A DNA stretch of 64,000 nucleotides, taken from contig JAJDDY010000027.1 in NCBI GenBank assembly GCA_029260075.1, positions 126,086 through 190,085 on the forward strand, written 5' to 3'. Below, piece by piece: positions 28,155 through 42,681 of this stretch (position 1 is the stretch's first letter; every line of letters begins with the position of its first letter). The notes under the pieces are model-generated. The model made no database searches. It saw only the letters and a list, made by a program, of their open reading frames with translations, and was not told where the DNA came from. The stretch is from Phycisphaerae bacterium. Lineage in GTDB: Bacteria > Planctomycetota > Phycisphaerae > UBA1845. A program made the translations under genes and the position numbers.

Positions 28155-29282
28155 TCACTTCCTGCGCATGCGGAGCAACGCCAGGAAGGTCGGCACACCA
28201 ATGATGGCGGTCACGACGCCTATTGGGAGCGTCGCACTGCCCAAGTGTCGACCGGTCACCCAACCGGCCAACCGCATGCTGAGCTGCGCCGACCAATCGC
28301 AGATGATCAAGAACGCCCCCCCGGCAAATGCCGATATCGGAAGCAGCAAACGGCAATCCCGTCCAAAGAGCAGCGCCACAATGTGGGGAACGACAAGCCC
28401 AACAAATCCTATCGGCCCGCACTTCGCCACAACCCCGGCCGTCGCCAGCGTGCAGCACAACACGCACACGGCTTGCAACGCACCGACGTTCACGCCGCGA
28501 GCCTCGGCCAATTCGTCACCCAAGCGATACTGATTTAGGGCCCGCCCGCTGAGCACAAGCACAACCCAAGCAGGAACCACAAGCGGTAACAGCGACGTGA
28601 CCTCAAGCGGACCGACGGGGTCGAGCGAGCCCATCATCCACCGCACCATGGCGAACGTCTGCCGTTCGTCCGAAACCGCGGTCACCAACATCATCATCGC
28701 CGAGCAGAACAGACCCATCGTCACGCCAGCGAGAAGAAGTTCGTTAGAGGTCAGACGACGGGAGCCACGACCGATGCTGTACACGACCGCTACCACACCG
28801 ACCGCGCCGACAAACGCACTAAGTGACAGGCAGGATATCCCCAGAAGCGTGAGCTGCCAACCAAGACGAATCGCTACCAACGCCCCGAGTGATCCGCCGC
28901 TGGCAATACCGAGCGTATACGGCGTGGCCAAGGCGTTACGGAACAAAACCTGAAACGTCGCACCGCACAATGCTAGCGTGATGCCGACCTGAAGAGCGAG
29001 CAGCGTCCTGGGAAACCGTAAATCGAAAATGGCCTCGGCCGCCTGAACGAACCCCTGGCGCTCGGACTCCGAAATCCGCCCATCGCCGTCGAAGTCGGCC
29101 GAGGGTCGGCCGCGAAGTTCGTCGGCGCTGATCTCGATCCCGAGCTTGGCTCGCCATGCATCACGCCATCCGCACATCGACGATTCGGTCCCGATGCCCG
29201 GACTCAGCAAGATGAGCACGAGCAATACCGACCCGCAACCACCCACTCGAACGAAGTAAGTCTGGCGAGAAAGAGGATTCAT
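28155..29282 (-). CDS. FecCD/BtuC-family ABC import permease (iron-siderophore/cobalamin type) with an EF-hand-like loop insertion
   Basis: FecCD-family TM core. ATGA start/stop overlap with the upstream ATPase gene supports the M61 start. DFDGDGRISESE 12-residue canonical EF-hand loop near the N-terminus. Confidence 0.82.
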   Translation of the reverse strand: MNPLSRQTYFVRVGGCGSVLLVLILLSPGIGTESSMCGWRDAWRAKLGIEISADELRGRPSADFDGDGRISESERQGFVQAAEAIFDLRFPRTLLALQVGITLALCGATFQVLFRNALATPYTLGIASGGSLGALVAIRLGWQLTLLGISCLSLSAFVGAVGVVAVVYSIGRGSRRLTSNELLLAGVTMGLFCSAMMMLVTAVSDERQTFAMVRWMMGSLDPVGPLEVTSLLPLVVPAWVVLVLSGRALNQYRLGDELAEARGVNVGALQAVCVLCCTLATAGVVAKCGPIGFVGLVVPHIVALLFGRDCRLLLPISAFAGGAFLIICDWSAQLSMRLAGWVTGRHLGSATLPIGVVTAIIGVPTFLALLRMRRK

Positions 29283-30097
29283 GTCGATTCGTCTTCCGTG
29301 GGCGCCAACGGTACGAGCCATGCAACGTCTGGTGCGTCCGGCAAGTGCATCGCGGTCATGCGAACATGGTACACCGGTTCGAGCACCTCCGGACAAACGA
29401 CCGTGGACGGAACACCGTCGGCGATGCTGCGTCCGTCGGACAGCAGCAGAATATGCGAGCAATAGCGCGCGGCGAGATTCACATCGTGCGTCACGACCAC
29501 AACGCTCAGCCCGTCGACGTCTGCTCGCTCGCGGAGGATTCCGAACATGGCCAGTTGGTGATGCAAGTCGAGCGACGCGGTGGGCTCATCAAGAAGCAAC
29601 ATTTGCGGCTCTTGCGCGAGCGCCGCCGCGAGATGAACGCGCTGCGTCTCACCGCCGGACAGGGTGGCCAAGTGTCGATCGCGAAAAGTGTCCGTGCGCG
29701 TAACCACCATCGCGCGGGCGGCGATCTCGTGGTCGTCGGCTGACTCGAACAGACCCATCGAACGATGAGGGAAACGGCCCATGAGCACCACGTCACCGGC
29801 GGTCAGATCAAGATCGCCCGGCGGATGTTGAGGCACGAACGCCATGCGCCGCGCCCGCGTTCGGCGCGGCAGCGCGCTCAGCGAGTCGCCTCCGAACCGA
29901 ATCGTCCCCGACGTCGGCTGCGCAAGCCCGGCCATAAGCCGAAGCAGCGTACTCTTGCCCGCTCCGTTGGGTCCAACGATTCCCCAGCACTCGCCCGGGC
30001 GAACGGTGAGATCGATCGGACCGAGAAAATCAGGCCGCGTCGGAAAGCCAAACCGAACCGCCTCAAGGGAAAGCATGACGTGGCCGTCAGGGTCCAA
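29279..30097 (-). CDS. ABC transporter ATP-binding protein (FecE/BtuD-like)
   Basis: Walker A GPNGAGKST, signature LSGGETQR, Walker B LLLDEP. Confidence 0.9.
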   Translation of the reverse strand: MDPDGHVMLSLEAVRFGFPTRPDFLGPIDLTVRPGECWGIVGPNGAGKSTLLRLMAGLAQPTSGTIRFGGDSLSALPRRTRARRMAFVPQHPPGDLDLTAGDVVLMGRFPHRSMGLFESADDHEIAARAMVVTRTDTFRDRHLATLSGGETQRVHLAAALAQEPQMLLLDEPTASLDLHHQLAMFGILRERADVDGLSVVVVTHDVNLAARYCSHILLLSDGRSIADGVPSTVVCPEVLEPVYHVRMTAMHLPDAPDVAWLVPLAPTEDEST

Positions 30098-31025
30098 CGC
30101 CGTCCTCCGGGTGTAAGATGCGAGAAATCTTTTCGATCACACCGACAATCCGCGGCGAGGGGATCAGACTGTTGTTGTCGGTGATGAAGTGCAAACGACC
30201 CTGGGCGATGGCTGGGATGGCTGAATACTTCGCCCATTGATGACGCATCTGCCGGTCGAGCGCTGGCGTCATGGTCACCTCGGGCATTAGTTCGATGATC
30301 ACCTCCGGGCGTTTGGCCAGAATGGCTTCGAGGCTGACCTGTGGATAGCGAAGGTCCAAATCGCCAAAGACGTTCACGCCGCCGGCGACCTCGACGAGTT
30401 CGCCGAGAAACATGCCACGCCCGGCCGTCAGAAGATCAGCGAGTCGATCGGGTTGACGCATCGTGGTAAGAAAAACACGAGGCTTCTTTCGACCGGCCAC
30501 GCGGCGGCGGATGGCGGCGAGTTGGTCGTGCATTTTTTTGGCAAGCGAGTCGGCCTCCTCGGTCAAACCGAGTCGGTTGCCCAAGTCGAGCACGGTTCGC
30601 GTGATGTCGGCCAGTGTCTCCGTGTCGTCGCGGTAGAGGTCGATGCCATGTCGGCGGCACAGACTCTCGATGGCTTCGCTTCGACCGCGCAGGACCACGA
30701 GGTCCGGTCGCAACGTGATGATTTTTTCAAGATCGGGATCGATGAACCCCCCGACGAGCGGCTTATGCTTCAGCTCGGGCGGATAGACACAATACTTGCT
30801 CGCCCCAACGATTCGGTCACAAGCACCAAGCGCACAAATAATCTCAGCCGCGTTCGGAGCGATGGTGATGATGCGTTTCGGAATTCTTTCTGCCGATGAT
30901 CCGTCCGACTGCGCTAGGCACGGTGTAGGCACAACCGAAAGGACCACCGAGACCACGGGTAAGCAAAGCCGCCACAGCCAGCGGCTGCGCGAGAACCGTG
31001 ATAAGCGAGATCGATCCGAGATCAT
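30087..31025 (-). CDS. Periplasmic substrate-binding protein of iron-siderophore/B12 ABC importer (FecB/BtuF-like)
   Basis: IITIAPNAAEIICALGA...LRPDLVVL cluster-8 SBP motifs. Signal peptide from MISDRSRLSR... (start trimmed). Confidence 0.82.
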   Translation of the reverse strand: MISDRSRLSRFSRSRWLWRLCLPVVSVVLSVVPTPCLAQSDGSSAERIPKRIITIAPNAAEIICALGACDRIVGASKYCVYPPELKHKPLVGGFIDPDLEKIITLRPDLVVLRGRSEAIESLCRRHGIDLYRDDTETLADITRTVLDLGNRLGLTEEADSLAKKMHDQLAAIRRRVAGRKKPRVFLTTMRQPDRLADLLTAGRGMFLGELVEVAGGVNVFGDLDLRYPQVSLEAILAKRPEVIIELMPEVTMTPALDRQMRHQWAKYSAIPAIAQGRLHFITDNNSLIPSPRIVGVIEKISRILHPEDGVGP

Positions 31026-31117
31026 GCGGCGAATCGTACCGCATTCACCGGACGCTTCCAATTTCGATTGCTTGTTGGTGTTCCTCGGGGAGCAATCGAC
31101 GACGGTGCATGCGACAG

Positions 31118-32884
31118 TCAGGATTCCCGCACCAAGCACACGTCCTGCACACTTCGTCCGCAGATGCGGGAGACGCCGATCGTGGCGTTTGGTTTTTCGG
31201 GGTCGCCGGGCGTCCAGCAGATGAGTCGATCGCGTAGGTCGTTGGTGGCGATGACCAAATCAGCGGCCACCTCGACGCGGCGCAGGGTCTGTCCGCCGGC
31301 TTCGTAGCGGCAGGAGAAGCTGTCGCCAAGCACGCGGGCGTGAACGTGGAGCGACGTATCGCTGTAGACCAAGCGGCGTACGCCGTGCGTCGACAAGTGC
31401 CAGATGGATTCCACCGCCCGCTGCGCGCCCGTGTGAATACGCTCCACACGGTCCGCAGAGTCCGAAGACCAGAACAGCACATCGCCGTCGCGGTTGCCGG
31501 CGAACAGGCCATCGGTTGTCGGGCAAAGGGCGGAAACCGTCGACACGCTGCCGGTGAAGACGCGGGACGGTTCGTCACCGACGTCATCGACGCGAACGCA
31601 ATGTACGTTGTCGTCGATGCTGCAATACAAATTGCCGTCGAGCATCGCCACGCCGCGCACGGCCTTGGCGTTCTTGGTTTTTGCTGAAAGGCGGTACCGA
31701 ACGTCGCCCGGCTTGTTGACGTTCCATTCGCACAACCCGAGTTCGGAATGGGACGCGAAGACCCGATCGCCCACAGCCACCACCGCGTTGAACCCGCCTT
31801 GCACCGACGGCGTGCCCTCGACGACGAGCGTCAGGTCCGGCGTTGACGCGTCTAGCGGCAGGCGATAGACCCCTGTCGACGCACCGAGCCAGAGCATCGG
31901 CGTGCCATCTGTTGCCACTGCGGATTGCGTCGATCGAACGCCACCGACTCCCCCCGCGATTTGTACACGTCGAGCCGGTTCGTCGAACGTCGACGGGTCG
32001 AAGAAGAGCAATTCGTCACCGGCGGCTACGACAACCCAGCGGGTGCGATCAGCCACCGGCTCGTTGGCGAAGAGCGCCGCGTAAAGCTCGCCGCGTTCGC
32101 GCTCTGCAAACGTCTTGACCAAATCGGGCAGGGCCACGTCGGGCGATGCGGAGGCCATGTCGCGAAGTCGCCCGAGCAATTGACCGAGGTGATCCAAGTG
32201 TTCAGCCTGAGCGCGATCGAGCGCCTGGCGCACTTCGTGCTCGGCCTCATGCACAGCCCGTCGGCGCGATGCATCGGCGTGGGCGTCTTGCACGTGTCTA
32301 AGCGTCTGCGAGTCGAACCGGACTTCGGGCGCACCCTCCAAGACCATGCCGGCAGCAAACAGCGGCGCCTGAACACCATCCGCAAGTGCGTTCGAAACCT
32401 GTTGAGCAACACGCCCGCCGACAAGCTCTGCACCGTCGTGCGCCGCCGCCACCTTGGCCAGCGCGGTCCGCAGCGCGGGTTCTAAGTATCGGGTGAGCCC
32501 CTTGGCTTGGGCTACGCGGTGACTACCCACTACGGATTTGGAAAAAGAAACGAGTTCGCCCCGCTCCGGCATTACACTGACGTGCAATGTTCCAACGGCT
32601 TTGCACGAGAAGCGATCGCGCGTGACGACGCCGTCTTCGTCGAAACTAATCTCGATCGGTGTGACGCGGAAGAACAGCACGTCTTCGACGTCGGCGCCAT
32701 CCACGACGCCGCCAGCTTCGACGACCACTTGGTCACCTGTCGATCGGCGTACGAGCGCGGCCCACTGAGCCGGAAGATCGAGCGAGCGAGAAAGCAGTCC
32801 GAACAGTTCCGACGCCTCCACGTGCAACGCCACGTTGGACGCCTCTTGAAAAAACAGACGTGGGTCAAACTTGCCCGAGGTCAT
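31118..32884 (-). CDS. Hypothetical protein with C-terminal beta-propeller-like region
   Basis: 588-aa ORF with coding-like composition. No family recognised. Confidence 0.55.
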   Translation of the reverse strand: MTSGKFDPRLFFQEASNVALHVEASELFGLLSRSLDLPAQWAALVRRSTGDQVVVEAGGVVDGADVEDVLFFRVTPIEISFDEDGVVTRDRFSCKAVGTLHVSVMPERGELVSFSKSVVGSHRVAQAKGLTRYLEPALRTALAKVAAAHDGAELVGGRVAQQVSNALADGVQAPLFAAGMVLEGAPEVRFDSQTLRHVQDAHADASRRRAVHEAEHEVRQALDRAQAEHLDHLGQLLGRLRDMASASPDVALPDLVKTFAERERGELYAALFANEPVADRTRWVVVAAGDELLFFDPSTFDEPARRVQIAGGVGGVRSTQSAVATDGTPMLWLGASTGVYRLPLDASTPDLTLVVEGTPSVQGGFNAVVAVGDRVFASHSELGLCEWNVNKPGDVRYRLSAKTKNAKAVRGVAMLDGNLYCSIDDNVHCVRVDDVGDEPSRVFTGSVSTVSALCPTTDGLFAGNRDGDVLFWSSDSADRVERIHTGAQRAVESIWHLSTHGVRRLVYSDTSLHVHARVLGDSFSCRYEAGGQTLRRVEVAADLVIATNDLRDRLICWTPGDPEKPNATIGVSRICGRSVQDVCLVRES

Positions 32885-33088: not shown

Positions 33089-34222
33089 TTACGCCAGCCC
33101 TCGCCCCGCGAACTGCTCGAAACGCAAGAGGTCAGCCTGAGCGACTGACGGGGCCGAGTTCTCGATCACACTCATTATATCCTTCATGGCGATCGATCGC
33201 GCATCACCGCCCGAAATCGCCTCCATAAAGGGTAATTGTGCGGAACGCTGCGCGATATTTTTGATATCCGCCCCAGTGTAGCCGTTCAACCGGTCGCAAA
33301 GGGCGCCGAAATCGACATCATCGGACAATGGTCGATCGCCGAAATAGATCTCCAGCAAGCGAAAGACGGCCGGGGCGTCCGGGACGCCGACGTAAATCTT
33401 CGAGTCCAACCGACCGGGGCGGAGCATGGCTTCATCCAACATCCAGGGTCGATTCGTCGCGCCCACGAACAACAGCGGACGGTCCGACTGACGATCGAAA
33501 CCCTCAAGCTCCTGAAGGATTTGCGGGACGACGCGCTGCATGACCGTGGAGCCACCGCTCTTTCGCTTGGGCACCAGCGCCTCTGTCTCATCGAGGAAGA
33601 TGACGGCGGTGTCTTCTGCCTTGGCTGTTTCGAAAAGCTTGCGAATGTTTTGCTCGGCTTCGCCGACCCACTTGCTAAGCATTTGCGCCGGGCTGACCAC
33701 GAAGAACGTCGCGTCGATTTCGTGGGCGATTGCTTTGGCGATCATCGTCTTGCCCGTGCCGGGCGGGCCGTAGAGCAATACACCCCCGCCGCTGTTGATG
33801 CCATATTTCTGGGCCAATTCGCGGTGGGCGAAGGGGTAGATCATCTTGAGGCGAATCTCCTCCTTCACGTCTTCAAGACCGGCGATGTCGTCGAAGCCGA
33901 TATTGGGCTTGTCCTTAACGATCCAATCGGAAGCGTCGGCGCCGGAGTCGTCTTCCTTTTCGCGCTGCCCGCCGGACCCACCGCGCCGCCCCTTCCGGCC
34001 GCCGGTGTGAAGGCGATCGCAATCCTTCGCCAGATCAATCAACTCGGTCGCGAGCTCTTCATGCTGACGCCGGGCTTCACCCGTCTTGGCGCCCTCGGCC
34101 ATCTCAAGCATGCACTCAGCCGCATCGACCAAATACGACTTGGCCGCAAGGTAGTCCCCACCCTTGTAGGCGTCGACACCCTTGCTCTTTAGTCGTTCAA
34201 ATGTTGTGAAAGAAACTGTCAT
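33089..34222 (-). CDS. Vps4-like AAA+ ATPase (meiotic clade) with N-terminal MIT domain
   Basis: N-terminal three-helix MIT-like region (KGVDAYKGGDYLAAKSYLVDAAECMLEMAEG...). Walker A GPPGTGKT, Walker B IFLDE. C-terminal helix DLLRFEQFAGRG closely resembles Vps4 C-terminal LLKQEQFTRDFG. Confidence 0.85.
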   Translation of the reverse strand: MTVSFTTFERLKSKGVDAYKGGDYLAAKSYLVDAAECMLEMAEGAKTGEARRQHEELATELIDLAKDCDRLHTGGRKGRRGGSGGQREKEDDSGADASDWIVKDKPNIGFDDIAGLEDVKEEIRLKMIYPFAHRELAQKYGINSGGGVLLYGPPGTGKTMIAKAIAHEIDATFFVVSPAQMLSKWVGEAEQNIRKLFETAKAEDTAVIFLDETEALVPKRKSGGSTVMQRVVPQILQELEGFDRQSDRPLLFVGATNRPWMLDEAMLRPGRLDSKIYVGVPDAPAVFRLLEIYFGDRPLSDDVDFGALCDRLNGYTGADIKNIAQRSAQLPFMEAISGGDARSIAMKDIMSVIENSAPSVAQADLLRFEQFAGRGLA

Positions 34223-34279
34223 AAAGAGTAGTCAATACATGCCGCCAGCCTAGCATGGCTCCCCCTAACCCCACAATTC

Positions 34280-34888
34280 CTACTTCTGCTTCTCACCCTG
34301 CTGTTTCAGTGAATTCAACTCCGCACGCAAGCCAGCGAGTTTTCCTAGTTCGCGTTGATGCTCGGCCTCCGTCTCGGCTTCGATCATGCGGTCGATTTCT
34401 TCATCGCCCAAGGCCTCGCCCGCCTTGCCCATTTCTGCATCCTGCGACGCGATGTCTTCGACGCTGTCGAGGAACATGTCCATGCGTTCCTCCATAGTCT
34501 GCGACTGCGCCATCGCCTTTTCCCAATCGCCCTGCGTCTTGACGAGGTCGGTCTCGCCGAAGAGGCGGCCGATTTCGGTGGCCATAATGCCCATGGCCTG
34601 TGCGAAGTCTGCCGACGCCTCCGCCTGACGTTTGATCAAGAGTGCGTTCTTCACCGACAGGAGTTGCCGTTCGAGCATTTTTCGGATCGTGGCCGTCTTC
34701 TTGAGGGAGTTGCGAATGAACTGATATTGGCTGGTGTCGCCAATCTTCTTGGCGTGGCGGGCGTTCTTGATGAATTCGTCTTGAAACTTGCCCTGCTCAC
34801 GAATGGACTTCTCGATCCGACGGATACCCTGCCGAATCTTGATGTCCCGCTCGATGCGGCGTTCTTCCGGTGATTTGAATAGTCCCAT
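34280..34888 (-). CDS. Snf7/ESCRT-III-like protein (basic N-terminal helical hairpin, acidic C-terminus with MIM-like motif)
   Basis: 202 aa, MGLF start. Basic N half, acidic C half. C-terminal EEIDRMIEAE...LGKLAGLRAELNSLK resembles CHMP MIM1. Adjacent to the MIT-AAA ATPase. Confidence 0.75.
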   Translation of the reverse strand: MGLFKSPEERRIERDIKIRQGIRRIEKSIREQGKFQDEFIKNARHAKKIGDTSQYQFIRNSLKKTATIRKMLERQLLSVKNALLIKRQAEASADFAQAMGIMATEIGRLFGETDLVKTQGDWEKAMAQSQTMEERMDMFLDSVEDIASQDAEMGKAGEALGDEEIDRMIEAETEAEHQRELGKLAGLRAELNSLKQQGEKQK

Positions 34889-34984
34889 GGTGTCAGTTCC
34901 CGTTACTTGCCTACGAGGTCAAACCAACGAAGTGCCGCGTCTACGTCCCTCAGTCGCCCAAAGCGCGTCCAAGATGCATCTTTC

Positions 34985-35053
34985 CGAGCCGCGACCGTGA
35001 CGGAGCGGTCGGGGATCGTGGGCGAAGACCGCTCCCTTACGGTCGCGGCTCGG
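34985..35053. repeat. Family-A repeat, copy 5 (core only; 3' of pspC-like gene)
   Basis: CCGAGCCGCGACCGTGACGGAGCGGTCGGGGATCGTGGGCGAAGACCGCTCCCTTACGGTCGCGGCTCGG. Confidence 0.85.
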
Positions 35054-35115
35054 TTTGTCATCACGCTCATTAAACACGCTCTAAGTCCCTTCGTCTCTTC
35101 TTCCCTACGTCTCTT

Positions 35116-35322
35116 CTAATAATACTCCCGCTCAGGGATCAACAGCCACAGGATGATGTAGATGAGGATTCCCGGAAACGCCGCGGAAAAAATCGACGCC
35201 AAGACATAGACGACCCGCACAACGGTCGGATCGATCCCGGCGTATTCTCCGAGACCGCCGCACACACCGGCGACGTTCCGATCAATAACGCTTCTTCGTA
35301 ATGGTTGAGAGAGATTTCCCAT
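35116..35322 (-). CDS. PspC-domain small membrane protein
   Basis: RRSVIDRNVAGVCGGLGEYAGIDPTVVRVVYV + TM is a canonical PspC domain. Start trimmed; the track ORF N-terminus is translation of a repeat element. Confidence 0.7.
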   Translation of the reverse strand: MGNLSQPLRRSVIDRNVAGVCGGLGEYAGIDPTVVRVVYVLASIFSAAFPGILIYIILWLLIPEREYY

Positions 35323-35375
35323 CGCTACATCCGCTTCGCCTGTTTTTCCTAAGGGCGTGTTCGAGACGCCATTTG

Positions 35376-35445
35376 CCGAGCCGCGCCCGTAAGGAAGCTG
35401 TCGGAGATCGTGGGCGAAGACCGCTCCCTTACGATCGCGGCTCCG
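35376..35445. repeat. Family-A repeat, copy 6 (core; 5' of pspC-like gene; spacer nearly identical to copy 5)
   Basis: CCGAGCCGCGCCCGTAAGGAAGCTGTCGGAGATCGTGGGCGAAGACCGCTCCCTTACGATCGCGGCTCCG. Confidence 0.85.
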
Positions 35446-35545
35446 TTCGACGAAACCCTTCATAGGCACCCTCTAAGTCTTGAGCCTGCCGTCGGTCGGG
35501 TTCATTGATCGCACTATGTCTTTGATCTACGCATTGACGAATCCA

Positions 35546-36151
35546 TCATCCCTCCGGCGTCGCGTGTCGCTCGCGTACGGTGCGGTCGGCTTCGTCGAAT
35601 CCTTCCGTCGCGTCAACTATGACACCGGTATCCATCTTATCCCATACGTTGAGCACGCTCTGACCGGCTGACGTCATACCGTCTGCACCCTCGTCCACGC
35701 CGGCGCCGATCGAAAGAATTTCGTCCAAACGCTCGTGATAGATTTCCGCGCGAACCGAGTCCGACTCGATCAGATTGCTGATGCGCAAGAGATCGGTCTC
35801 GCTGACCAAGCCGAGCTTGTTGGACTGCCCGGCGCGGTCCGCGTTTTCGCGCAGCATACGCAAACGCGACACGGTAAGCATTTCCTTGCTACGAATGTTA
35901 AGCTGCCGGGCGAGCATGAGTTGCTCGGTCGTGCGCATCTCGAATTCCTGAGCGAGAACGCGCCGCAATTCGGGCGTCTTTTCCGTCGAACCTCGATCGA
36001 ACAGCTTCTGCTTGTCGGCTGCGATTTTCTCGACCTTGCGCAGAAGCTGGTTGCGATCCTTCTCTAGCAACAACTCCTGCCGGCGCAACTCAGCCCTCGT
36101 CATTTGCGACAGGGGCTTCTTGCGTTTAGTTAGCCATTCAAGAAACGCCAT
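35546..36151 (-). CDS. Snf7/ESCRT-III-like protein (second paralogue)
   Basis: 201 aa. Basic coiled-coil N half (LRRQELLLEKDRNQLLRKVEKIAADKQKL) and acidic C half, similar in architecture to 34280-34888. Confidence 0.65.
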   Translation of the reverse strand: MAFLEWLTKRKKPLSQMTRAELRRQELLLEKDRNQLLRKVEKIAADKQKLFDRGSTEKTPELRRVLAQEFEMRTTEQLMLARQLNIRSKEMLTVSRLRMLRENADRAGQSNKLGLVSETDLLRISNLIESDSVRAEIYHERLDEILSIGAGVDEGADGMTSAGQSVLNVWDKMDTGVIVDATEGFDEADRTVRERHATPEG

Positions 36152-36232
36152 GAATCAAACCGTACCTCCACGCAACAATCGGATTCTTTGCCAGTCGAAC
36201 CACGCCGGACGCTATGGGCCGACGCTACGCGA

Positions 36233-37702
36233 TCATGTCGGCTCGGCATCAGCGCGACGCGATTGATCCGCATCGTGATCTGACGACGGCGGTTCCTCGA
36301 CCGGATCTCTTGCAACCCCACGCTCGGTCGCCACTGGTGGTATCGGCGTCGCAGCCTGCTTCGGTGCACTCGATGCGTCAGCCACCGCCGGCGCGTCGTC
36401 GGCTTCAAACTCCTTGAGTATCGCCAGCTCGTCGTCGCTAATCAGCGTCTCTTCGATTCCGGTCTCCAAACTTCCAACCAACTCCGCGTCAGCTTGGAGC
36501 GTTTCGAGCATTTCCTCAGCCTTCACGGCGTTCTCAGTCAGCGTTTCCGTATCGGGGAGGCTGGCCATTTCGCCCTGCTGAATGAGCGTGAGGTTGTGGA
36601 TGTCCGTGCTGATGATGTCGATCTGTTTGTTGAGCATCGCAGCCGTCGTGTTCTGCCGGCCGATGTCCTTACGCAATTGGGCGAGTTGTGCGGCGATGCG
36701 ACGTTTGGGCACCTGCGACTTGGCGGCTTTGCCCTGCTCGAACAGGTTGGCCTCTTTCTTTTCCAACTGCCCGATGTCTTCATAGATGCGGTCGCGTCGC
36801 TGAGCGAGGAGCGCGCGGCGTTCAGCCAGCACGTTGATCTTCTCCCCCTCGTCGCCCTCGCTACCGAACAACTGCTTGATGCGATCGATGACATTCATCG
36901 ATTTTCTCTCCTGCGACGCCACCGGGGCGCCTCGAAACAATAGAAGTTCACCGTCTTTGTCCGCCACGTGCAGCTCTTGATCGGCCGACGCCAGTTCACG
37001 CATTCCGTCGCGTACGATGTGCTGCGGGAGACCCATCTTCCGCGCCACCGACGACGCGGACAGACCGCCCGTGAGCAAATCGGCGCTATGCTCCTCAACG
37101 ACGCGGCGGACACGCTGCGTCTTCTCCGTCGTGCCTTCCGGGTCGAACAGCTTGAGCAGACGCGCGTCCGTGTGTTCAGCCGACGAACTCGTTTGCCATC
37201 CGCCGTGCCCGTCCGGTTCCACAAGCACGACCGACACGTTAGGCATATCGATCTTGGCCGCCTTGGCTTCGTCGGTAAAACCCGTGGGGCTGCACACGCC
37301 GACAACCTGCGGCACGCGGGCATCGGCGGTCAATCGCCGAACATGATCGACGAGTTCACCAAGCCCGATCGCAGGGGCGTCGCCATCATCGTCGGACGCA
37401 AAGTGGCTCAGCGGCGACAACACCGTCGCTATCGCTGCTCCGGTCTCACGTTTCGTAATCAGGAAATGCCGTTCGTAACCGCGTAGGACGATTCGGCGAT
37501 TGGCCGGCAGCGACTTGAGCCTCTCGCGGTCGTAGATTCGATTGGACGCCAGCAGAGCACGCACGCGGTCACTCTGATCATTGCGCACCAACTGCCAGAT
37601 CGACCCGCGAAGCTGTTTCCCCTTCGCGGCTTCGAAATTCGTCAACACGCCCGACAGAAAGTCGGTCTCTAGTTGAAAGGCTCGCTGAGCGTCTGTTGTC
37701 AT
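36233..37702 (-). CDS. Fusion protein: unknown ~265-aa N-terminal domain with wHTH-like segment + C-terminal Snf7/ESCRT-III-like domain
   Basis: C-terminal 220 aa (from MNVIDRIKQLFG) repeat the Snf7-like basic/acidic helical pattern. No stop separates it from the N-terminal domain. Confidence 0.65.
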   Translation of the reverse strand: MTTDAQRAFQLETDFLSGVLTNFEAAKGKQLRGSIWQLVRNDQSDRVRALLASNRIYDRERLKSLPANRRIVLRGYERHFLITKRETGAAIATVLSPLSHFASDDDGDAPAIGLGELVDHVRRLTADARVPQVVGVCSPTGFTDEAKAAKIDMPNVSVVLVEPDGHGGWQTSSSAEHTDARLLKLFDPEGTTEKTQRVRRVVEEHSADLLTGGLSASSVARKMGLPQHIVRDGMRELASADQELHVADKDGELLLFRGAPVASQERKSMNVIDRIKQLFGSEGDEGEKINVLAERRALLAQRRDRIYEDIGQLEKKEANLFEQGKAAKSQVPKRRIAAQLAQLRKDIGRQNTTAAMLNKQIDIISTDIHNLTLIQQGEMASLPDTETLTENAVKAEEMLETLQADAELVGSLETGIEETLISDDELAILKEFEADDAPAVADASSAPKQAATPIPPVATERGVARDPVEEPPSSDHDADQSRRADAEPT

Positions 37703-37731: not shown

Positions 37732-37998
37732 TTACGCAAGCGGCGCACCGCAATGTCCACAATACCTGGCGCCGCGGCGACGCTCGATGCGTCCACATCC
37801 CTCTCGCGTGCAGACCGGTTCGTTCGACGCCACCGGCTTGGCCATGTCGGGCAATCGATCGCGACGAAACCCAAACAAGTTCGCAAGCCCCGAGACCAAC
37901 CACCCGATCGTTCGCCCGATCAGATAGATCACTCCGAAGAGAAATGCGGCGCATCCGAACAGGAGCACGAAAATAATCAGCAGGCTCTCGCCGTGCAT
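37732..37998 (-). CDS. Small membrane protein with C-terminal zinc ribbon
   Basis: TM (LLIIFVLLFGCAAFLFGVIYLIG) + CTREGCG...CGHCG. Sits between the kinase and the ESCRT-like cluster. Confidence 0.45.
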   Translation of the reverse strand: MHGESLLIIFVLLFGCAAFLFGVIYLIGRTIGWLVSGLANLFGFRRDRLPDMAKPVASNEPVCTREGCGRIERRRGARYCGHCGAPLA

Positions 37999-38013
37999 TA
38001 CCGGTCCCCAGTG

Positions 38014-39057
38014 TCATTGAGTAACGCGTCGTAGATCGTGACCGCACAAAATACAAAACCGATCGTTCGCGTGGACGCTGGCGCTGCACTCCGAACACGC
38101 CAACACGCGATCGACCACCTGCCGTCCGCAGTAGATACAAAACTGATCGTCGTCATGAACCGACCGCCCACAACCCACGCACTTCGTACCGCACGGCACT
38201 GCCACCGGCGGGGGTGGTGGTGGTGGTGGCACGGACGTGTGATCATCAGGCGAAAGCGCCGCGAGCATCTCGCGCGTCGAAGCAAACCGCCGATCCAACC
38301 GCGTGTAGCAGCGACGGAATACGTCGTCCAAGTACGGCGGCACGTCGCGACGTAGTGAGCCGGGCGTGTCTCCGCCCTGCGGTCGCTCGCCAGTTAGCAT
38401 TTCGCACAAAAGCACGCCGCAGGAGTACAGATCGCTCCGTCCGTCGAGCGGATGACCCGCCTTCTGTTCCGGCGACATGTACGCCAGCGTGCCGGCGATG
38501 CTCCGCCCCTCTTCCGCCGCCATGCTTCCGCTCTGCATAATCGACTGCGTCGTGACCCCGCCCACATGACCAAGCCCGAAATCCGTCACCCGCACGGACT
38601 TCTCCGTGATCGTCGCCAAGTCCGACGGCGGAAGGTGCAACAGGATGTTCGCCGGCTTGATGTCGCGGTGAATCACTCCGCCATCATGGGCCACGGTAAG
38701 CGCCGACAACACACCGCGCATGATCGTCAACGCCGCCGAGATCGGCATCGCTGACTTGTATTCGTCGATAATCTCGCGCACCGACGGACCGTTCACGTAT
38801 TCCATGATGAGGTAAGGCGGCTCGGCGTATGGATCCAAGTCGATCGCGCGAACGATGTTGTGGTGTTTGAGGCCGTGAACAGCCACACCCTCGCGCTGCA
38901 GGTTGCGCACGTATTGCGGATCGGTCGGAATCTTGATGGCGACAAGATCGTCGAACACATGGTGCCGCGCACGCCAGACCACACCGAAGCTTCCAGCGCC
39001 AACACGCGTCTCAAGCACGTAGTTGTTGATCCGATCACCTTCGTGTTGGGCTGACAT
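38014..39057 (-). CDS. Ser/Thr protein kinase with poly-Pro linker and two C-terminal zinc ribbons
   Basis: GxGxxG (VGAGSFGVV), VAIK, HRDIKPANILL, DFG, SPE motifs. PPPPPPPP. CxxC...CxxC x2. Confidence 0.88.
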   Translation of the reverse strand: MSAQHEGDRINNYVLETRVGAGSFGVVWRARHHVFDDLVAIKIPTDPQYVRNLQREGVAVHGLKHHNIVRAIDLDPYAEPPYLIMEYVNGPSVREIIDEYKSAMPISAALTIMRGVLSALTVAHDGGVIHRDIKPANILLHLPPSDLATITEKSVRVTDFGLGHVGGVTTQSIMQSGSMAAEEGRSIAGTLAYMSPEQKAGHPLDGRSDLYSCGVLLCEMLTGERPQGGDTPGSLRRDVPPYLDDVFRRCYTRLDRRFASTREMLAALSPDDHTSVPPPPPPPPVAVPCGTKCVGCGRSVHDDDQFCIYCGRQVVDRVLACSECSASVHANDRFCILCGHDLRRVTQ

Positions 39058-39095: not shown

Positions 39096-39500
39096 CTATC
39101 TCATCTCCAAACGCTCAGCCTGATACTCGCAAACCTTAAAATTATAAGCAGCCGCAGAGAGAAATCCAAGAACAAGCACCATCCACGTCAAGGCGTTGTG
39201 CCCACTGAGCCCCCCGATCAGCACGATAGCCACGATGGCATCCACCAGCGACAACCCGACCAGCAGGAGTGCGGCGCCGACGTTGGATTCTTTCGATACG
39301 ACCCACGTCGTTACGAAAAACGACACCCAAGGCACCATGAGCACGATACCAATCCATACGAGCACGTATTTCACCGTCACCCAAATGGTTTCGAGCGCTT
39401 CCGGGTGCTTCCAGAACCATATCACCGCACCGGCGCCCGAGACGACAAGAATCGCGGTGAGCACCTTAGCGCCCACGTATTGTCCGATAGCCGAAAACAT
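39096..39500 (-). CDS. Hypothetical multi-TM membrane protein
   Basis: 4 predicted TM helices. ATG with AAGGA SD; the track ORF starts at an upstream TTG. Confidence 0.55.
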   Translation of the reverse strand: MFSAIGQYVGAKVLTAILVVSGAGAVIWFWKHPEALETIWVTVKYVLVWIGIVLMVPWVSFFVTTWVVSKESNVGAALLLVGLSLVDAIVAIVLIGGLSGHNALTWMVLVLGFLSAAAYNFKVCEYQAERLEMR

Positions 39501-39885
39501 GAATTCGCCATCCTTACGCAAGAGATCGTTCGCAATCGAGAAGCGACGTGCGAACCTACCGATACCCTACCGCGCCCCACGTCGCACGGCGATTACAAAG
39601 ACCGACTCCCTCTATAATTCGCGTTTTGCGCCGGTTTATCCGCGTAGGAGCGGCGGACAACCCCCAGACGCGTGGTCGGGGCAACTGGATCCGGGGGGCG
39701 CGCCGCGACGCTGTCGCTACACACAGGAATCCCAAACGGCGCAGCCATGGCACGCCAAGACTGGCCGACGACAAGGTATCGCATGAGTGCTAACTCACGA
39801 GCAGGCGGGTCACCAACGAAGCCCAGTATCGCACAAGAATCTCGTACGCTTCGCGCAACAACCTAGTGCTCTGGCACAGCTAGAA

Positions 39886-40013: not shown

Positions 40014-41426
40014 TTAGTCGAAGCTGGAAACCAGAACGATGCGGTGTTTTCCCGAAGCCTTAGCCTGATAGAGAGATCTGTCGGCGACCCGGATTAGTGA
40101 CTCGGGGTCCGGAATGTCCGGCGTGCTGACGCACGCGATGCCCATGCTGAACGTTGTTCGGACCTCAGGAATTCGCTCGGCAAGTCGCCGGGCGAATGCC
40201 TCGGCGATGCGTTCGGCAAGCGTGTGGGCGCTCGCGCCATCAGTCTGCGGGAGGATCGCGACGAACTCGTCACCGCCGAACCGGGCGGCCATGTCCGCAG
40301 CACGTAACTCGCCGTCGATGGTCGAAGCCGCGAGCACCAACACATCGTCGCCGACTTGATGGCCAAAGGCGTCGTTGACGGCCTTGAAATCGTCAAGGTC
40401 AATCATGATACATGACAACTCGGTGTCATATCTCTTGGCTTCGGAGAAACGGCGATTGAGCATGTCATTCAAATGGCGGCGATTGAACAGACCGGTCAGC
40501 GGATCACGGGATGCCAGTTCCCGAAGTTGCCGCGTGCGCTGCATCACGCGACGCTCAAGGTCCGCGTTCATCGTAACCAGTCTATCGTGCGTCTCCTGAT
40601 GCAAGTCTGCCATCGCATTGAACGCATTGACCAGTTTCCCAACCTCGTCGCTACGCCGCGTCTTGCTTCTTATGTCTAGGTCGCCACGGGAGAACTGATG
40701 CATGGCGTCCGCCAATCCATCCAGCGGGGCCACAATACGTCGCACGAGAAAAAAGCCCAAGGGGATCACGATCATCGTGGCGAGCAGCGCGATACCGATC
40801 ACCAGATCCAATCGGCTGGCGATGCTGCGAGACCAGCCACTCGCCCCCATCCCCATGCGCACGTAACCCACCAAACGTGTTGTTCCTCCGCCGGGATGAT
40901 CAAGCTCATCCTCGGTCGCCTCGTGCGCGATTCGTGTAGTGATCGGGTAGACGACATCAATGAGCGCCGCACCGCTTTCGGGTTGCCAAAGGACCGGCTG
41001 ACCGGGAACGGGAATGCCACGGTGCATTCTTGCCGCCACCGCATTGAGCACACGTATATGACGACTCTGGGCGCTGGCGTACACGTGACCTTCAGCGTCC
41101 GTGATGATGACGTACTTCACCGGATCACCGTTGGCGACTCTGCGTGCCAAGCGCTTGAGGTTCGAAGGATCTCGTGTCGACCATTGAGACTCCGCCGCCT
41201 TGGACAGCAGACCAGCTAGCTGTACCAAATGCGACCGATGTTGATCGCGAACCACAGTCGCACTTGTCTTGAGAATGTAACCGGCGACGGCAGCGGCGAC
41301 CGAAAGCGTCAGCAAGACAACCAGGACTGTCGCCTTGAACTGGAGTGTCTGCGCAGCGCCGAGAAGACCGCGCCCGGCGGTCGACAAAGTGCTCCGAACC
41401 GTATCGTCTGTGTACTCGTCTGCCAT
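40014..41426 (-). CDS. Diguanylate cyclase (TM sensor-HAMP-GGDEF)
   Basis: HAMP region, then GG(D/E)EF-domain motifs (RFGGDEF, DDFKAVND). Start trimmed to the ATG preceding the first TM; the upstream part of the track ORF overlaps the neighbouring gene. Confidence 0.85.
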   Translation of the reverse strand: MADEYTDDTVRSTLSTAGRGLLGAAQTLQFKATVLVVLLTLSVAAAVAGYILKTSATVVRDQHRSHLVQLAGLLSKAAESQWSTRDPSNLKRLARRVANGDPVKYVIITDAEGHVYASAQSRHIRVLNAVAARMHRGIPVPGQPVLWQPESGAALIDVVYPITTRIAHEATEDELDHPGGGTTRLVGYVRMGMGASGWSRSIASRLDLVIGIALLATMIVIPLGFFLVRRIVAPLDGLADAMHQFSRGDLDIRSKTRRSDEVGKLVNAFNAMADLHQETHDRLVTMNADLERRVMQRTRQLRELASRDPLTGLFNRRHLNDMLNRRFSEAKRYDTELSCIMIDLDDFKAVNDAFGHQVGDDVLVLAASTIDGELRAADMAARFGGDEFVAILPQTDGASAHTLAERIAEAFARRLAERIPEVRTTFSMGIACVSTPDIPDPESLIRVADRSLYQAKASGKHRIVLVSSFD

Positions 41427-41625
41427 CCTATCCTCTACGGCGCGGCCCCCCGTCACGCGCTCGCTTATCCATAGCGCGATACGAACAAGCCTGTTCCGGT
41501 AACGTCTGTATCGACAACGGGCAAGTGGAACTGAATCGTCTAATGCAACGGGATTCTGGATAGGAAGTGCTGCCGGGCCCATGTTATCGGGCCACGATAC
41601 TAGACGGCGGGCGCGGGCGGAGTGA

Positions 41626-42681
41626 TTAGCTGCCGAGAAAACTTCGATCAGGTATTTGTGATTCCAGGTGTGGCGTTGGAGACGCCGCGTCAGTGCCACC
41701 CTGGGCCCGCGACCGAAGGGTGTCGAGCGCCTCGCGCACTTCTGAGGCCATACGAGCGTTGGGAAACTCACGAATCAGTTCGACCCCGGTGCCCAGCGCA
41801 TCCTGCCATCGTTTTTCGTTCACGGCAAAACGAAATTGCACGCCAAGTTGCAACAGTTTGTCTTTGAAGACGTCACGCGCCGAGGAACGCAGCGCCTCCG
41901 CCTCGGCTGCAGAAAGGTATTGATCGAGTTCACGAAGAATATCGATCGCCTGATCTGTATCGTTTCGTCTAACCGCTTCCTGCCACGACACAAGCAACGC
42001 CTGCTTGTGATCGTCTTTGAGCGATTCCATCCGATCACGCAACGCCAGCACACGCGCGTTGTCGGGCAGGAGACCGAGGAGGCGATCGATCTCATGGCCG
42101 GCACGAGTCCATTCGTACGATTGGAAATGTCCCTCGATCATCTCTATGGCTTCGCGAAGACGTACTTCCATCGCACCATTTCGGGCCGCGTCCAACTGTT
42201 CGCGAAACTGTTCGGCCTCTTCCTTGCAACCGAACCGAACTTCCATATCGTCGATTAGACTCAGCGCTCGCTCCCAGTGCTCGCCCGCCAAATCCTCGCG
42301 GATTACCGTGCGAAGCATGTCCAAGTCTTGTTCGCGATGGGTGAGCGACTTGGCTGCATCGGAGATGGCCGTGTTCTCGCCGATCAGCTCCAGCACCGCA
42401 TTCTGTTGAACGATGCTGTCGTGCAGGTCGCGCAGGGTTCCGAATTGTCGCGTGATCGTCGACTCGGTTTTCAGGATCAAGGGCACAAGCGTGAGAAACA
42501 TGATTGACAGGAACGAAACAAAGCCGCCGGCTGCAATTAGCCAAACGCCGCCGGACGATTCGGACGAACCGTATCCCACGGCGCCCATGCCGATTAGAAT
42601 CGCGCCGCCGATCATGGCGCACACGCACACTGCGGTCTGAAGCCAACGAAGCTGTGCGAATCGTCCTGGAGACATGGCCAT
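41626..42681 (-). CDS. Hypothetical membrane protein with 2-3 TM helices and a large helical cytoplasmic domain
   Basis: ATG start. TM segments near the N-terminus. Helical repeat-like remainder. Confidence 0.55.
   Translation of the reverse strand: MAMSPGRFAQLRWLQTAVCVCAMIGGAILIGMGAVGYGSSESSGGVWLIAAGGFVSFLSIMFLTLVPLILKTESTITRQFGTLRDLHDSIVQQNAVLELIGENTAISDAAKSLTHREQDLDMLRTVIREDLAGEHWERALSLIDDMEVRFGCKEEAEQFREQLDAARNGAMEVRLREAIEMIEGHFQSYEWTRAGHEIDRLLGLLPDNARVLALRDRMESLKDDHKQALLVSWQEAVRRNDTDQAIDILRELDQYLSAAEAEALRSSARDVFKDKLLQLGVQFRFAVNEKRWQDALGTGVELIREFPNARMASEVREALDTLRSRAQGGTDAASPTPHLESQIPDRSFLGS

Follow-up and report, generated by a model that had tools for sequence, protein, structure and literature searches.

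A minus-strand gene cluster in a Phycisphaerae bacterium (phylum Planctomycetota) appears to encode a bacterial counterpart of ESCRT-III/Vps4, a module that pairs a polymer with an unfoldase to remodel membranes; this reading is assigned a probability of roughly 0.6. The predicted function of the module is probably ATP-driven membrane remodelling. The cluster lies in a 64,000-nucleotide stretch of DNA (the window), where five minus-strand ORFs, encoding g1, g2, a PspC-domain protein, g4 and a AAA ATPase, are present at the expected coordinates (Table 1). Every homologue carries a hypothetical annotation, and a literature search found no paper on a g1/g2/PspC/g4/AAA locus.

Table 1. Features of the cluster and its neighbours, in transcription order
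Feature	Coordinates	Strand	Basis
141-aa hydrophobic protein, probably multi-pass membrane	39096..39521	-	Syntenic upstream
Ser/Thr protein kinase, 347 aa, upstream partner	38014..39057	-	Pkinase 1.5e-36, DZR 1.2e-9
88-aa protein, putative TM N-terminal segment and 4-Cys zinc ribbon	37732..37998	-	Between kinase and g1
g1, three-part protein, 489 aa	36233..37702	-	AF2 model
g1 N-terminal a/b domain, residues 1-185, unknown family	37148..37702	-	Conserved GVCSPTGF and GGW motifs
g1 winged-helix module, residues 191-257	36932..37132	-	Foldseek
g1C helical domain, residues 268-434	36401..36901	-	ESCRT-III-compatible layout, AF2 model
g2, all-helical protein, 201 aa	35546..36151	-	AF2 model, ESCRT-III-compatible layout
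PspC-domain membrane protein, 68 aa	35116..35322	-	Pfam PspC 1.5e-22
g4, Snf7/CHMP-clade ESCRT-III, 202 aa	34280..34888	-	Family profile vs PDB, Pfam Snf7
Classical single-cassette AAA ATPase, 377 aa, CdvC/Vps4-like architecture	33089..34222	-	Pfam AAA, Vps4_C
ATPase N-terminal domain, ~75 aa, MIT-like/TPR-like helical	33998..34222	-	Profile matches
ATPase C-terminal helix (…SVAQADLLRFEQFAGRG)	33110..33199	-	Pfam Vps4_C positions 27-56 of 61
SPFH/Band_7 protein, 588 aa, downstream partner	31118..32884	-	Pfam Band_7 26.0 bits (cutoff 23.6)

Gene order, conservation and neighbours

The order and content of the locus (Ser/Thr kinase, g1, g2, PspC, g4, AAA, SPFH protein) are conserved across dozens of species. 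Because g1, g2, g4 and the ATPase gene keep one order in 32 of 55 species-level loci, the arrangement is far from chance. The core proposal of an earlier note on this DNA holds: a Snf7-clade ESCRT-III gene adjoins a CdvC/Vps4-like AAA gene in a bacterium, and the two are co-conserved. Median identity reaches 83% for g4, 72% for the ATPase and 44-69% for the remaining genes, and the rank of g4 as the most conserved gene matches expectation for a polymer subunit. The g4 gene sits immediately 5' of the ATPase gene (gap 5-106 nt) in the window, where the ATPase starts 57 nt 3' of g4, and in L007, L009, L013, L033, L039, L040 and L050-53 of the locus survey. The same adjacency occurs in the distant loci L058, L056/57, L063/64 and L066. 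The pair is thus retained from Phycisphaerae to relatives that are ~25% identical, usually accompanied by more ~200-aa helical proteins, an SPFH protein and a Ser/Thr kinase. The second ATPase found in related modules has VPS4B as its best single-domain PDB match (residues 11-377 vs 9-352).

The interval 33089-37702, to which the earlier note confined the cluster, excludes a conserved SPFH protein downstream and a kinase, a Zn-ribbon protein and a TM protein upstream. The SPFH protein, whose long C-terminal part has a weak beta-propeller-type match, is syntenic in 33/55 loci, L050 and L051 among them, and among the more distant modules, L066 and L067-69 have Band_7 genes too. The kinase ends in a double zinc ribbon and is found in 44/55 loci, lying 3' of the module in L050-53; kinases also occur at L066, L071 and the P0139 locus. 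The 88-aa protein, detected in 20 loci, scores 18.6 bits against NCBIfam 4Cys_prefix_kin (cutoff 24) and weakly matches Zn_Ribbon_1. The 141-aa protein occupies the equivalent position in 35/55 loci (median identity 58%) and matches no Pfam or NCBIfam family.

Toxin-antitoxin-like NTase/HEPN pairs lie between g4 and the ATPase gene in some genomes, and the L058 module contains a trypsin-like protease.

An anti-phage or abortive-infection island, with the kinase as sensor, an IetA-like AAA effector and membrane-disrupting helical proteins, could account for such genes at the g4-AAA junction and in L058, and PADLOC matches the ATPase to IetA (118 bits) and the kinase to PD-T4-6 and Mad6. These matches nonetheless reflect generic domain similarity, weaker than that to housekeeping AAA proteins (CDC48, 227 bits), and PADLOC matches none of g1, g2, g4, PspC or the SPFH protein. 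The class-wide synteny and high conservation of the locus (83% for g4), unlike the patchiness of fast-evolving defence islands, make this explanation very improbable.

The Snf7/CHMP-type protein and its helical neighbours

On profile evidence, g4 is a genuine Snf7/CHMP-clade ESCRT-III protein. The g4 family profile (A1) matches CHMP3 in the PDB at 1.2e-5 (positions 13-168 vs 14-165), followed by CHMP2A (3.6e-5), Snf7 (2e-3), CdvB2, CHMP1B and a second CHMP3, and its alignment to these chains is colinear over ~155 positions. Only ESCRT-III chains are among the PDB matches of the profile, PspA and Vipp1 being absent, so an earlier judgement by eye that g4 is nearer CHMP/Snf7 than PspA holds. The window sequence alone gives no direct Pfam or PDB match, whereas the family profile does, and Pfam Snf7 is matched by 23/52 family members (best 1.1e-7). 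All 2752 homologues of g4 are annotated as hypothetical. The protein begins MGLFKS, as CHMP3 begins MGLF…. Its charge runs from basic in the N-half (+12) to acidic in the C-half (-13), and a conserved amphipathic helix forms its C-terminus. An acidic linker precedes this terminal helix, and linker and helix carry the pattern D..I..GL..I..ELG, which is MIM1-like but non-canonical; a strict MIM1 was found in 1/52 family members.

The two other helical proteins had likewise been described as Snf7-like. The AF2 model of g1 (pLDDT 81, and >90 across residues 1-260) comprises an a/b N-domain, a winged helix and a helical-hairpin C-domain (g1C); none of its 390 homologues, all hypothetical, has Pfam domains. 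Foldseek matches the winged helix to Z-alpha (prob 1.00, TMt 0.65-0.68), to 40S-subunit and archaeal 70S ribosomal protein chains (prob 0.89-0.99) that are likely S25e, to ArsR/GntR wHTH domains and to human ESCRT-II 3cuq_B (prob 0.87). In g1C, the model places a0 at 271-280 (MNVIDRIKQLFG), a hairpin at 285-326/330-379, a4 at 386-414 and a5 at 423-434; g2 (pLDDT 78) has a0 at 2-7, a1 at 19-56, a2/3 at 60-106, a4 at 118-153, a5 at 161-175 and a6 at 181-196. In these confident AlphaFold models, both helix layouts are compatible with ESCRT-III. Sequence searches link neither protein to Snf7 or PspA, and g2 has no match in the PDB or Pfam. Foldseek returns nothing significant for g2, listing VIPP1, CdvB2 and Ist1 among BAR proteins and designed bundles, and for both proteins generic coiled coils score as well as ESCRT-III. 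Profile-profile comparison with g4 gives 7-20%. Of the three proposed Snf7-like proteins, membership in ESCRT-III is established for g4, and g1C and g2 are candidates. The basic N-half and acidic C-half ascribed to all three are seen in g4 and g2 (+10/-12); in g1C (+3/-21) the hairpin is not strongly basic.

A less probable explanation is that g4 and the ATPase alone form the ESCRT-like pair, while g1 and g2, as coiled-coil or adaptor proteins such as scaffolds or kinase substrates, are unrelated to it and only share the operon; a picture of several ESCRT-III paralogues would then be wrong. Neither g1C nor g2 is assigned to the superfamily by any profile or fold search, and the recognisable extra paralogues at distant loci are of the g4 type and not of the g2 or g1C type. 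Against this, the g1C and g2 models match a0, a1, a2/3, a4 and a5 in length and order, share an 'M..(I/F)..(I/L)..LFG'-type N-terminal start and charge polarity, and have ESCRT-III members in their fold match lists. A weak link between them by hhalign (34-48%), and the occurrence of g1C as a standalone ~240-aa gene in other loci, point the same way.

The AAA ATPase and the PspC gene

The ATPase consists of an N-terminal helical domain, a Gly/charged linker, the AAA cassette, a lid and a C-terminal helix, and matches Pfam AAA (9e-40), AAA_lid_3 and Vps4_C (22.4 bits, just exceeding the cutoff of 21.3). The Walker A (152 GPPGTGKT), Walker B (207 VIFLDE), pore-loop (184 KWVGE) and Arg-finger motifs are all intact, alongside ATNRPW and RPGRLD; as predicted from these motifs, the enzyme is catalytically intact. 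NCBIfam scores are 227 bits for CDC48, 220 for PAN and 215 for CdvC, each under its own cutoff (650 bits for the CdvC equivalog). The C-terminal segment also aligns to the p97/Cdc48-D2 C-terminus (SVSDNDIRKYEMFA vs SVAQADLLRFEQFA), p97-D2 being the best match, and the SRH is RPGRLD, of the Cdc48/PAN type; that of Vps4, katanin and spastin is RRF-type. Judged by sequence, the C-terminal helix and SRH are as similar to Cdc48-D2 as to Vps4, and the window ATPase is nearer Cdc48-D2 and PAN in raw similarity and CdvC-like mainly by architecture. The AAA and Vps4_C matches confirm the AAA+ assignment of the earlier note, but its argument from a Vps4-type C-terminal helix fits p97/Cdc48-D2 equally.

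Direct searches with the N-domain found no Pfam MIT match and only weak TPR matches. One further weak match (E 0.28) is to chain 2mpk, which we take to be a chitin-synthase MIT domain. The N-domain HMM matches the N-termini of the L058 (47.5 bits) and L056 (15.5 bits) ATPases, and the L056 N-terminus matches Pfam MIT (3.4e-5). CdvC is the top NCBIfam match for the orthologue L045 (238.7 bits, 14-368 vs 18-366 of 370) and for L063 and L066; these three and L050 align to the CdvC model end to end, including an N-terminal region that is presumably the MIT domain. Through such transitive profile matches and orthologue alignments, the window domain is linked to MIT only indirectly.

The PspC gene is genuine: besides its Pfam match, it scores 1.4e-13 against NCBIfam pspC, under the equivalog cutoff, and the short start at ATG 35322 fits orthologues, which are mostly ~68 aa. 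PspC is detected in 37/55 loci and was not detected in L041-L053 of the survey; it is a Phycisphaerae-specific addition. The suggested Psp/ESCRT hybrid consequently fits one lineage and not the module, other versions of which have no PspC. In a Psp-type envelope-stress system, PspC would sense damage and recruit membrane-coating helical effectors, and the AAA protein would be a general chaperone or regulator, either PspF-like in function or one that, like Cdc48, extracts damaged proteins from the membrane, not a Vps4-type disassemblase. The mid-operon PspC domain, an ATPase at least as close to CDC48-D2 and PAN as to CdvC, and the SPFH/Band_7 partners of bacterial PspA systems (PMC11237479) are consistent with this explanation. 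It is nevertheless unlikely: no protein matches PspA_IM30, the g4 profile retrieves no PspA or Vipp1 from the PDB, the ATPase does not belong to the sigma-54 activators, and distant versions without PspC (L041-L053, L058, L063, L066) retain g4 and the AAA gene. Adjacency of g4 and AAA down to 25% identity points instead to a specific partnership. With neither PspA_IM30 nor a PspF-type ATPase, this is no standard Psp operon.

Known systems and a proposed mechanism

Archaeal Cdv/ESCRT-III-Vps4 loci (CdvB paralogues and CdvC; euryarchaeal and Asgard loci) likewise combine Snf7-family genes and a single-cassette AAA gene in an operon, with an N-terminal helical domain and C-terminal helix on the AAA protein, and among curated models CdvC fits several ATPases of the family best. 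Multiple ~200-aa helical paralogues per locus are another likeness, as is a winged helix on one subunit; archaeal CdvB bears one. An SPFH partner, present in some archaeal ESCRT loci (PMC10936438), recurs in the Planctomycetota locus and its relatives. The Planctomycetota locus differs in its bacterial host, its added PspC and Ser/Thr kinase, an ATPase whose score of 215 falls well short of the CdvC equivalog cutoff of 650 and whose SRH is of the Cdc48/PAN type, the lack of a canonical MIM1, and a g1 winged helix that precedes the helical domain and is fused to the a/b domain. CdvA, ESCRT-I and ESCRT-II are not among the genes recognised at the locus. Relative to eukaryotic ESCRT-III/VPS4, g4 is colinear with the CHMP3 and CHMP2A cores and shares their basic/acidic polarity and terminal amphipathic helix following an acidic linker, but identity is very low, MIM-MIT recognition is putative in the Planctomycetota module, and the ATPase sequence, with its short lid-to-C-helix segment, lacks the Vps4 beta-domain insertion. 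Bacterial PspA/Vipp1 systems (Psp, Lia) share the superfamily, a bacterial host, a PspC neighbour and SPFH/Band_7 association, whereas g4 falls on the Snf7 branch and not in PspA_IM30, PspF, PspB and LiaI are missing, and a dedicated classical-clade AAA unfoldase adjoins g4.

Vps4-like ATPases have been reported from bacteria, and bacterial 'PspA/Snf7 plus AAA+ plus Band-7' contexts have been proposed, in a general way, as analogues of ESCRT-like complexes (Ravi et al., 2024; PMC11237479). In that work, a TPR-6TM protein replaces snf7 in the Vps4-like transfers, and the PspA/Snf7-linked ATPase has two AAA domains. Its main text includes neither Planctomycetota nor the set of g1 winged-helix fusion, g2, PspC, g4, MIT-like AAA, SPFH protein and kinase.

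In the ESCRT-III/Vps4-like module favoured here, g4 would use its basic hairpin and N-terminal MGLFKS to polymerise on the cytoplasmic side of the inner membrane, and g1C and g2 may co-polymerise with it. An ATPase hexamer would dock by its MIT-like N-domain on the acidic linker and terminal amphipathic helix of g4 and thread subunits via the KWVGE pore loop, leading to polymer turnover or constriction. PspC (in Phycisphaerae) and the SPFH protein might anchor the assembly or define a membrane patch, the winged helix and a/b domain of g1 might serve as adaptor or nucleator, and the Ser/Thr kinase might regulate the module. A conservative guess at the cellular process is envelope repair or vesiculation; a bolder guess is FtsZ-independent division.

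Recent reviews hold the pairing of ESCRT-III with a Vps4-like ATPase to be absent from bacteria. Contrary to those reviews, the strongly conserved Phycisphaerae operon joins a genuine Snf7/CHMP-type ESCRT-III protein and a CdvC/Vps4-like AAA ATPase in one bacterial locus, and Planctomycetota are a phylum that divides without FtsZ.

Gene order and recurrence of the module

The locus is best classed as a bacterial ESCRT-III/Vps4-type module. The five minus-strand ORFs claimed in the earlier note are all present at the coordinates given there. Gaps between genes are short, 29-227 nt overall, with 57 nt between g4 (a Snf7/CHMP-like protein) and the ATPase gene. The longest possible PspC ORF begins at 35469; the ATG at 35322 that had been proposed as its start is supported because most orthologues are ~68 aa long.

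Coordinates of the module, its neighbours and related features in homologous loci (L numbers)
Feature	Location	Strand	Detail
g1	window 36233-37702	minus	489 aa
g1 a/b domain	window 37148-37702		residues 1-185
g2	window 35546-36151	minus	201 aa
PspC	window 35116-35322	minus	Pfam 1.5e-22
g4	window 34280-34888	minus	202 aa
ATPase	window 33089-34222	minus	377 aa
88-aa protein and Ser/Thr kinase	window 37732-39057		
Membrane protein	window 39096-39521		141 aa
HAMP/GGDEF gene	window 40014-41771		diguanylate-cyclase type
ABC importer-like trio	window 28155-31139		3' of SPFH gene
One gene of the trio	window 30087-31139		
g4-AAA junction insertions, examples	L001 10693-11392; L010 10794-11490; L014 10860-11541; L054 8310-12489		
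Second ATPase type	L071 2334-3653; gene upstream of g4-type representative P0139		P0139 neighbour 419 aa
Split g1 genes	L050 2252-4618; L071 2-1623		N-domain/winged-helix protein and standalone helical protein
g4-type/FtsK fusion P0223	L059 1338-2873		
Trypsin-like serine protease	L058 2097-3020		

The same-strand array extends downstream to a 588-aa SPFH/Band_7 protein, whose residues 65-227 score 26.0 bits against Pfam Band_7 (gathering score 23.6), and upstream to an 88-aa protein, a Ser/Thr kinase and a 141-aa membrane protein. The 88-aa gene lies immediately 5' of g1, with the kinase gene before it. The 88-aa protein combines a putative TM segment with a '4-Cys prefix' zinc-ribbon match below threshold, and the kinase ends in a double zinc ribbon. 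The synteny of both genes with the module, and the return of kinases in distant modules, suggest phospho-regulation. The 141-aa membrane protein is syntenic in 35/55 loci and a HAMP/GGDEF gene, judged by eye from its motifs, in 28/55; a GGDEF/EAL gene also borders the distant L066 module. Judged by translation, the ABC importer-like trio looks like a FecCD-type permease, an ATPase and a periplasmic binding protein. It is probably outside the module, since one of its genes is syntenic in only 9 loci.

These counts come from a survey of one genome per species, which yielded 55 loci whose specific labels, where carried, are Phycisphaerae or Planctomycetota. In 32 of them g1, g2, g4 and the AAA gene occur together in the window's order, usually preceded by the TM protein, kinase and 88-aa protein and followed by the SPFH protein. 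Median identity over these 32 loci is 83% for g4, 72% for the AAA protein, 69% for g2, 63% for PspC, 59.5% for the kinase, 58.5% for g1 and 44% for the SPFH protein. The ATPase is genomically linked to ESCRT-III genes across loci, and the g4-AAA junction measures 5-106 nt in many genomes, the most distant included. On metagenome contigs without a taxonomic label, g4 relatives of ~25-40% identity again sit directly 5' of an AAA gene encoding the same N-domain, so the g4-ATPase partnership is the conserved core of the module. Recurrent companions of this core are the SPFH protein and the kinase; PspC and the g1 fusion belong to particular lineages. What the analysis demonstrates is confined to protein identities and gene linkage.

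Distant modules often add g4-type paralogues, Band_7 proteins, kinases, PP2C, FtsK or a trypsin-like protease. The trypsin-like serine protease of L058 has a helical N-terminal extension and lies between helical paralogues and two AAA ATPases. In other loci the g4-AAA junction is an insertion hotspot, with 0.6-4 kb separating the two genes. Large membrane proteins are part of its cargo, alongside other inserts and pairs that resemble nucleotidyltransferase/HEPN toxin-antitoxin modules when motifs like LFGS.AYG…DVDLLV and FRYPGES are read by eye.

That the locus is a defence island is highly improbable: PADLOC matches exist and are generic only, and such an identity conflicts with the class-wide synteny. 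Nor is it a standard Psp operon (PspF-ABC), in keeping with the earlier note; of the parts of that operon only the PspC domain, itself an unambiguous match, is present, without PspA_IM30, PspF or PspB. A Psp-like stress system working with a general chaperone is unlikely as well, given the same lack of PspA_IM30 and PspF and the dispensability of PspC across the family (among the 55 loci, the more distant L041-L053 gave no PspC match).

The g4 subunit and its ATPase

Queried singly against Pfam, NCBIfam and PDB sequences, g1, g2 and g4 give no direct match. The g4 family, however, comprises 2752 clusters at 90% identity (303 representatives at 50%), and a profile of 52 diverse members, A1, was searched against the PDB. 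The best eight matches, and 13 of 15 in total, are ESCRT-III proper, including CHMP3 (1.2e-5), CHMP2A (3.6e-5), Snf7 (2e-3), CdvB2, CdvB and CHMP1B; PspA and Vipp1 are not among the matches. The alignment is colinear (A1 positions 13-168 with CHMP3 14-165, and 11-147 with CHMP2A 8-144) and covers the core a1-a2 hairpin and a3-a5 of the solved subunits. Individually, 23 of the 52 members match Pfam Snf7 (PF03357; best 1.1e-7). On these two lines of sequence evidence g4 is a Snf7/CHMP-branch ESCRT-III protein, which bears out the earlier by-eye call that it lies nearer CHMP/Snf7 than PspA. PspA_IM30 is matched by none of the operon proteins or g4-family members.

The g4 C-terminus carries a conserved terminal amphipathic helix, D..I..GL..I..ELG, after an acidic linker. 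The helix looks MIM1-like, but just one of the 52 family members has a strict MIM1; eight have a relaxed form, against 2.0 in shuffles (maximum 7).

The ATPase contains one AAA cassette of the classical clade, in which the catalytic and pore-loop motifs are intact (Walker A GPPGTGKT, Walker B VIFLDE, pore loop KWVGE, ATNRPW and RPGRLD). Its Pfam matches are AAA (9e-40), AAA_lid_3 and Vps4_C (22.4 bits, cutoff 21.3), the last falling below threshold in the distant L063 and L066 ATPases. A Vps4-type C-terminal helix had been claimed; Vps4_C does exceed its cutoff, but the argument is unspecific, p97/Cdc48-D2 being the best match of the final 90 residues (SVSDNDIRKYEMFA). In NCBIfam the window's ATPase scores 227 bits for CDC48, 220 for PAN and 215 for CdvC, each far under cutoff (650 bits for the CdvC equivalog model NF041006), and by curated criteria it is no CdvC orthologue. 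CdvC is the top curated family, still below cutoff, for the 62%-identical orthologue in L045 and for the L063 and L066 ATPases. These align with the CdvC model end-to-end from position 1-18 (e.g. 1-371 with 1-366 of 370), and the alignment therefore takes in the N-terminal region of CdvC.

The N-terminal ~75 residues of the window's ATPase give only weak TPR matches and one weak match to 2mpk (E 0.28), which we take to be a MIT domain. An HMM of this N-domain scores 47.5 bits against the N-terminus of the 40%-identical L058 ATPase and 15.5 bits, in the same register, against that of the L056/57 ATPase. The L056/57 ATPase lies downstream of a g4-like gene, and its N-terminus matches Pfam MIT at 3.4e-5 (24.3 bits, under the gathering score of 30). 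For a MIT-like N-terminus, as described earlier, the direct matches of the window's ATPase are weak; the indirect evidence is better, namely the reach of the HMM to this MIT-matching relative and the CdvC alignments above. The overall layout of the ATPase is CdvC/Vps4-like: a Gly/charged linker joins a helical N-domain to a single AAA cassette, which a C-terminal helix follows. Its sequence appears mosaic: the KW pore loop and PW, taken here to be of Vps4 type, accompany an RPGRLD SRH, presumably of Cdc48/PAN type.

In some modules a second ATPase, of a longer type (419-439 aa), lies upstream of g4-like genes; the window carries only the 377-aa type. The L071 copy of the longer type has an 'SRFEKK' SRH, and its best single-domain PDB match is human VPS4B (residues 11-377 with 9-352, MIT region included), which places it closer to Vps4 than the ATPase of the window.

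The helical proteins g1 and g2

Three Snf7-like proteins had been proposed. The proposal holds for g4, by profile, but g1C (the helical C-domain of g1) and g2 lack Snf7 or PspA sequence membership. Profiles of g1 and g2 (25-27 orthologues each) return coiled-coil noise from the PDB and Pfam, with no ESCRT-III or PspA. Profile-profile comparison by hhalign gives 34-48% for g1C-g2, 8-20% for g1C-g4 and 7-11% for g2-g4. It is possible, though less likely than not, that only g4 and the AAA protein are ESCRT-like, with g1 and g2 as unrelated coiled coils.

AlphaFold models from alignments of 81 (g1) and 61 (g2) sequences are confident, with pLDDT 81 and 78. In the g1 model, residues 1-185 form an a/b domain and 191-257 a winged helix; g1C holds a short helix (271-280) and a 42/50-residue hairpin (285-326, 330-379) followed by helices 386-414 and 423-434. 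The g2 model comprises a0 2-7, a1 19-56, a2/3 60-106, a4 118-153, a5 161-175 and a6 181-196. As modelled, the secondary-structure layout of g1C and g2 fits that of ESCRT-III. A Foldseek search with the g2 model finds VIPP1, CdvB2 and Ist1 at E 0.7-2 only, among BAR and designed bundles. The a/b domain of g1 is modelled confidently and has invariant GVCSPTGF and GGW motifs; fold searches, dominated by the other domains of g1, identified no family or fold match for it.

Phycisphaerae g1 is a gene fusion, because its halves stand as two genes in more distant Planctomycetota (L050-53 and L071). The first encodes an N-domain and winged-helix protein that scores 84 bits against the g1N HMM; the L050 protein has a weak MerR-type HTH match. 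The second encodes a ~240-aa helical protein that starts 'M..DRIRRLFG' or 'MGLFEKLASLF' and matches g1C from residue 1 (52%, E 1.4e-4). Another ~200-aa helical protein, g4, AAA, an SPFH-like protein and a kinase follow.

Proposed polymer turnover and a possible role in planctomycete division

The best-supported reading of the locus is a polymer-plus-unfoldase module, for which we infer docking, polymerisation and a cellular role. We put the probability of a genuine, functional g4-ATPase pairing at about 0.85, and consider the specific disassemblase mechanism somewhat more likely than not. g4 would polymerise on the inner membrane, possibly together with g1C and g2. The ATPase would dock at the conserved acidic linker and terminal helix of g4 (D..I..GL..I..ELG) and pull subunits out through its own pore. 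PspC and the SPFH protein may anchor or delimit the assembly, the winged-helix and a/b domains of g1 may serve as an adaptor, and the kinase may regulate assembly.

According to a 2025 review, bacteria seem to lack a Vps4-like ATPase (PMC7619361), and for this reason the turnover of bacterial ESCRT-III-like polymers is an open question. Vps4-like transfers into bacteria, with a TPR-6TM gene replacing snf7, have been described, as have PspA/Snf7-clade genes beside Band-7 proteins and an AAA+ ATPase with two domains, and 'analogs of ESCRT-like complexes' were suggested (Ravi et al. 2024, PMC11237479). That study is a partial conceptual precedent; its main text mentions neither Planctomycetota nor the present gene set. 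Homologues in the protein collection are all labelled 'hypothetical protein' save two evident mislabels, and the window's own proteins are annotated without a name.

Planctomycetes are the only free-living bacteria reported to divide without FtsZ, and reviews of the group name no FtsZ replacement and leave ESCRT unmentioned (PMC12673574). That this operon, or more widely the g4-AAA module, supplies their missing cytokinesis machinery is a long shot. In this speculative scheme, a Cdv-like ESCRT-III/Vps4 system, a kinase-regulated and SPFH/PspC-anchored composite polymer remodelled by the ATPase would constrict and cut the membrane. One lead is the extreme conservation of g4. Division is also hinted at by g4 relatives that carry a fused FtsK/SpoIIIE ATPase domain or adjoin ftsK or ftsW/PBP genes. 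The g4-type representative P0223 is one such fusion, of an N-terminal ESCRT-III domain with an FtsK/SpoIIIE ATPase domain. The g4-type part is likewise N-terminal in ~ten further representatives of 430-510 aa, the FtsK/SpoIIIE domain being established for P0223 alone. In L067-L069 a separate ftsK-like gene lies directly 5' of the g4-like gene. The FtsK links may represent a second, independent bacterial ESCRT-III-plus-ATPase pairing.

At this locus a bacterium pairs a Snf7-branch subunit with a CdvC-like unfoldase, and the pairing is conserved. The partnership of polymer and AAA protein either predates the archaeal/bacterial split or marks an old inter-domain transfer, and either origin provides a bacterial model for how it works. 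Four 'hypothetical' families (about 2750 g4, 1420 g2 and 390 g1 clusters, and the ATPase) gain a working hypothesis. Planctomycetota have elaborate inner-membrane invaginations. Because the module sits in this phylum, which invaginates its inner membrane and divides without FtsZ, how Planctomycetota divide becomes directly testable, with candidate genes named.
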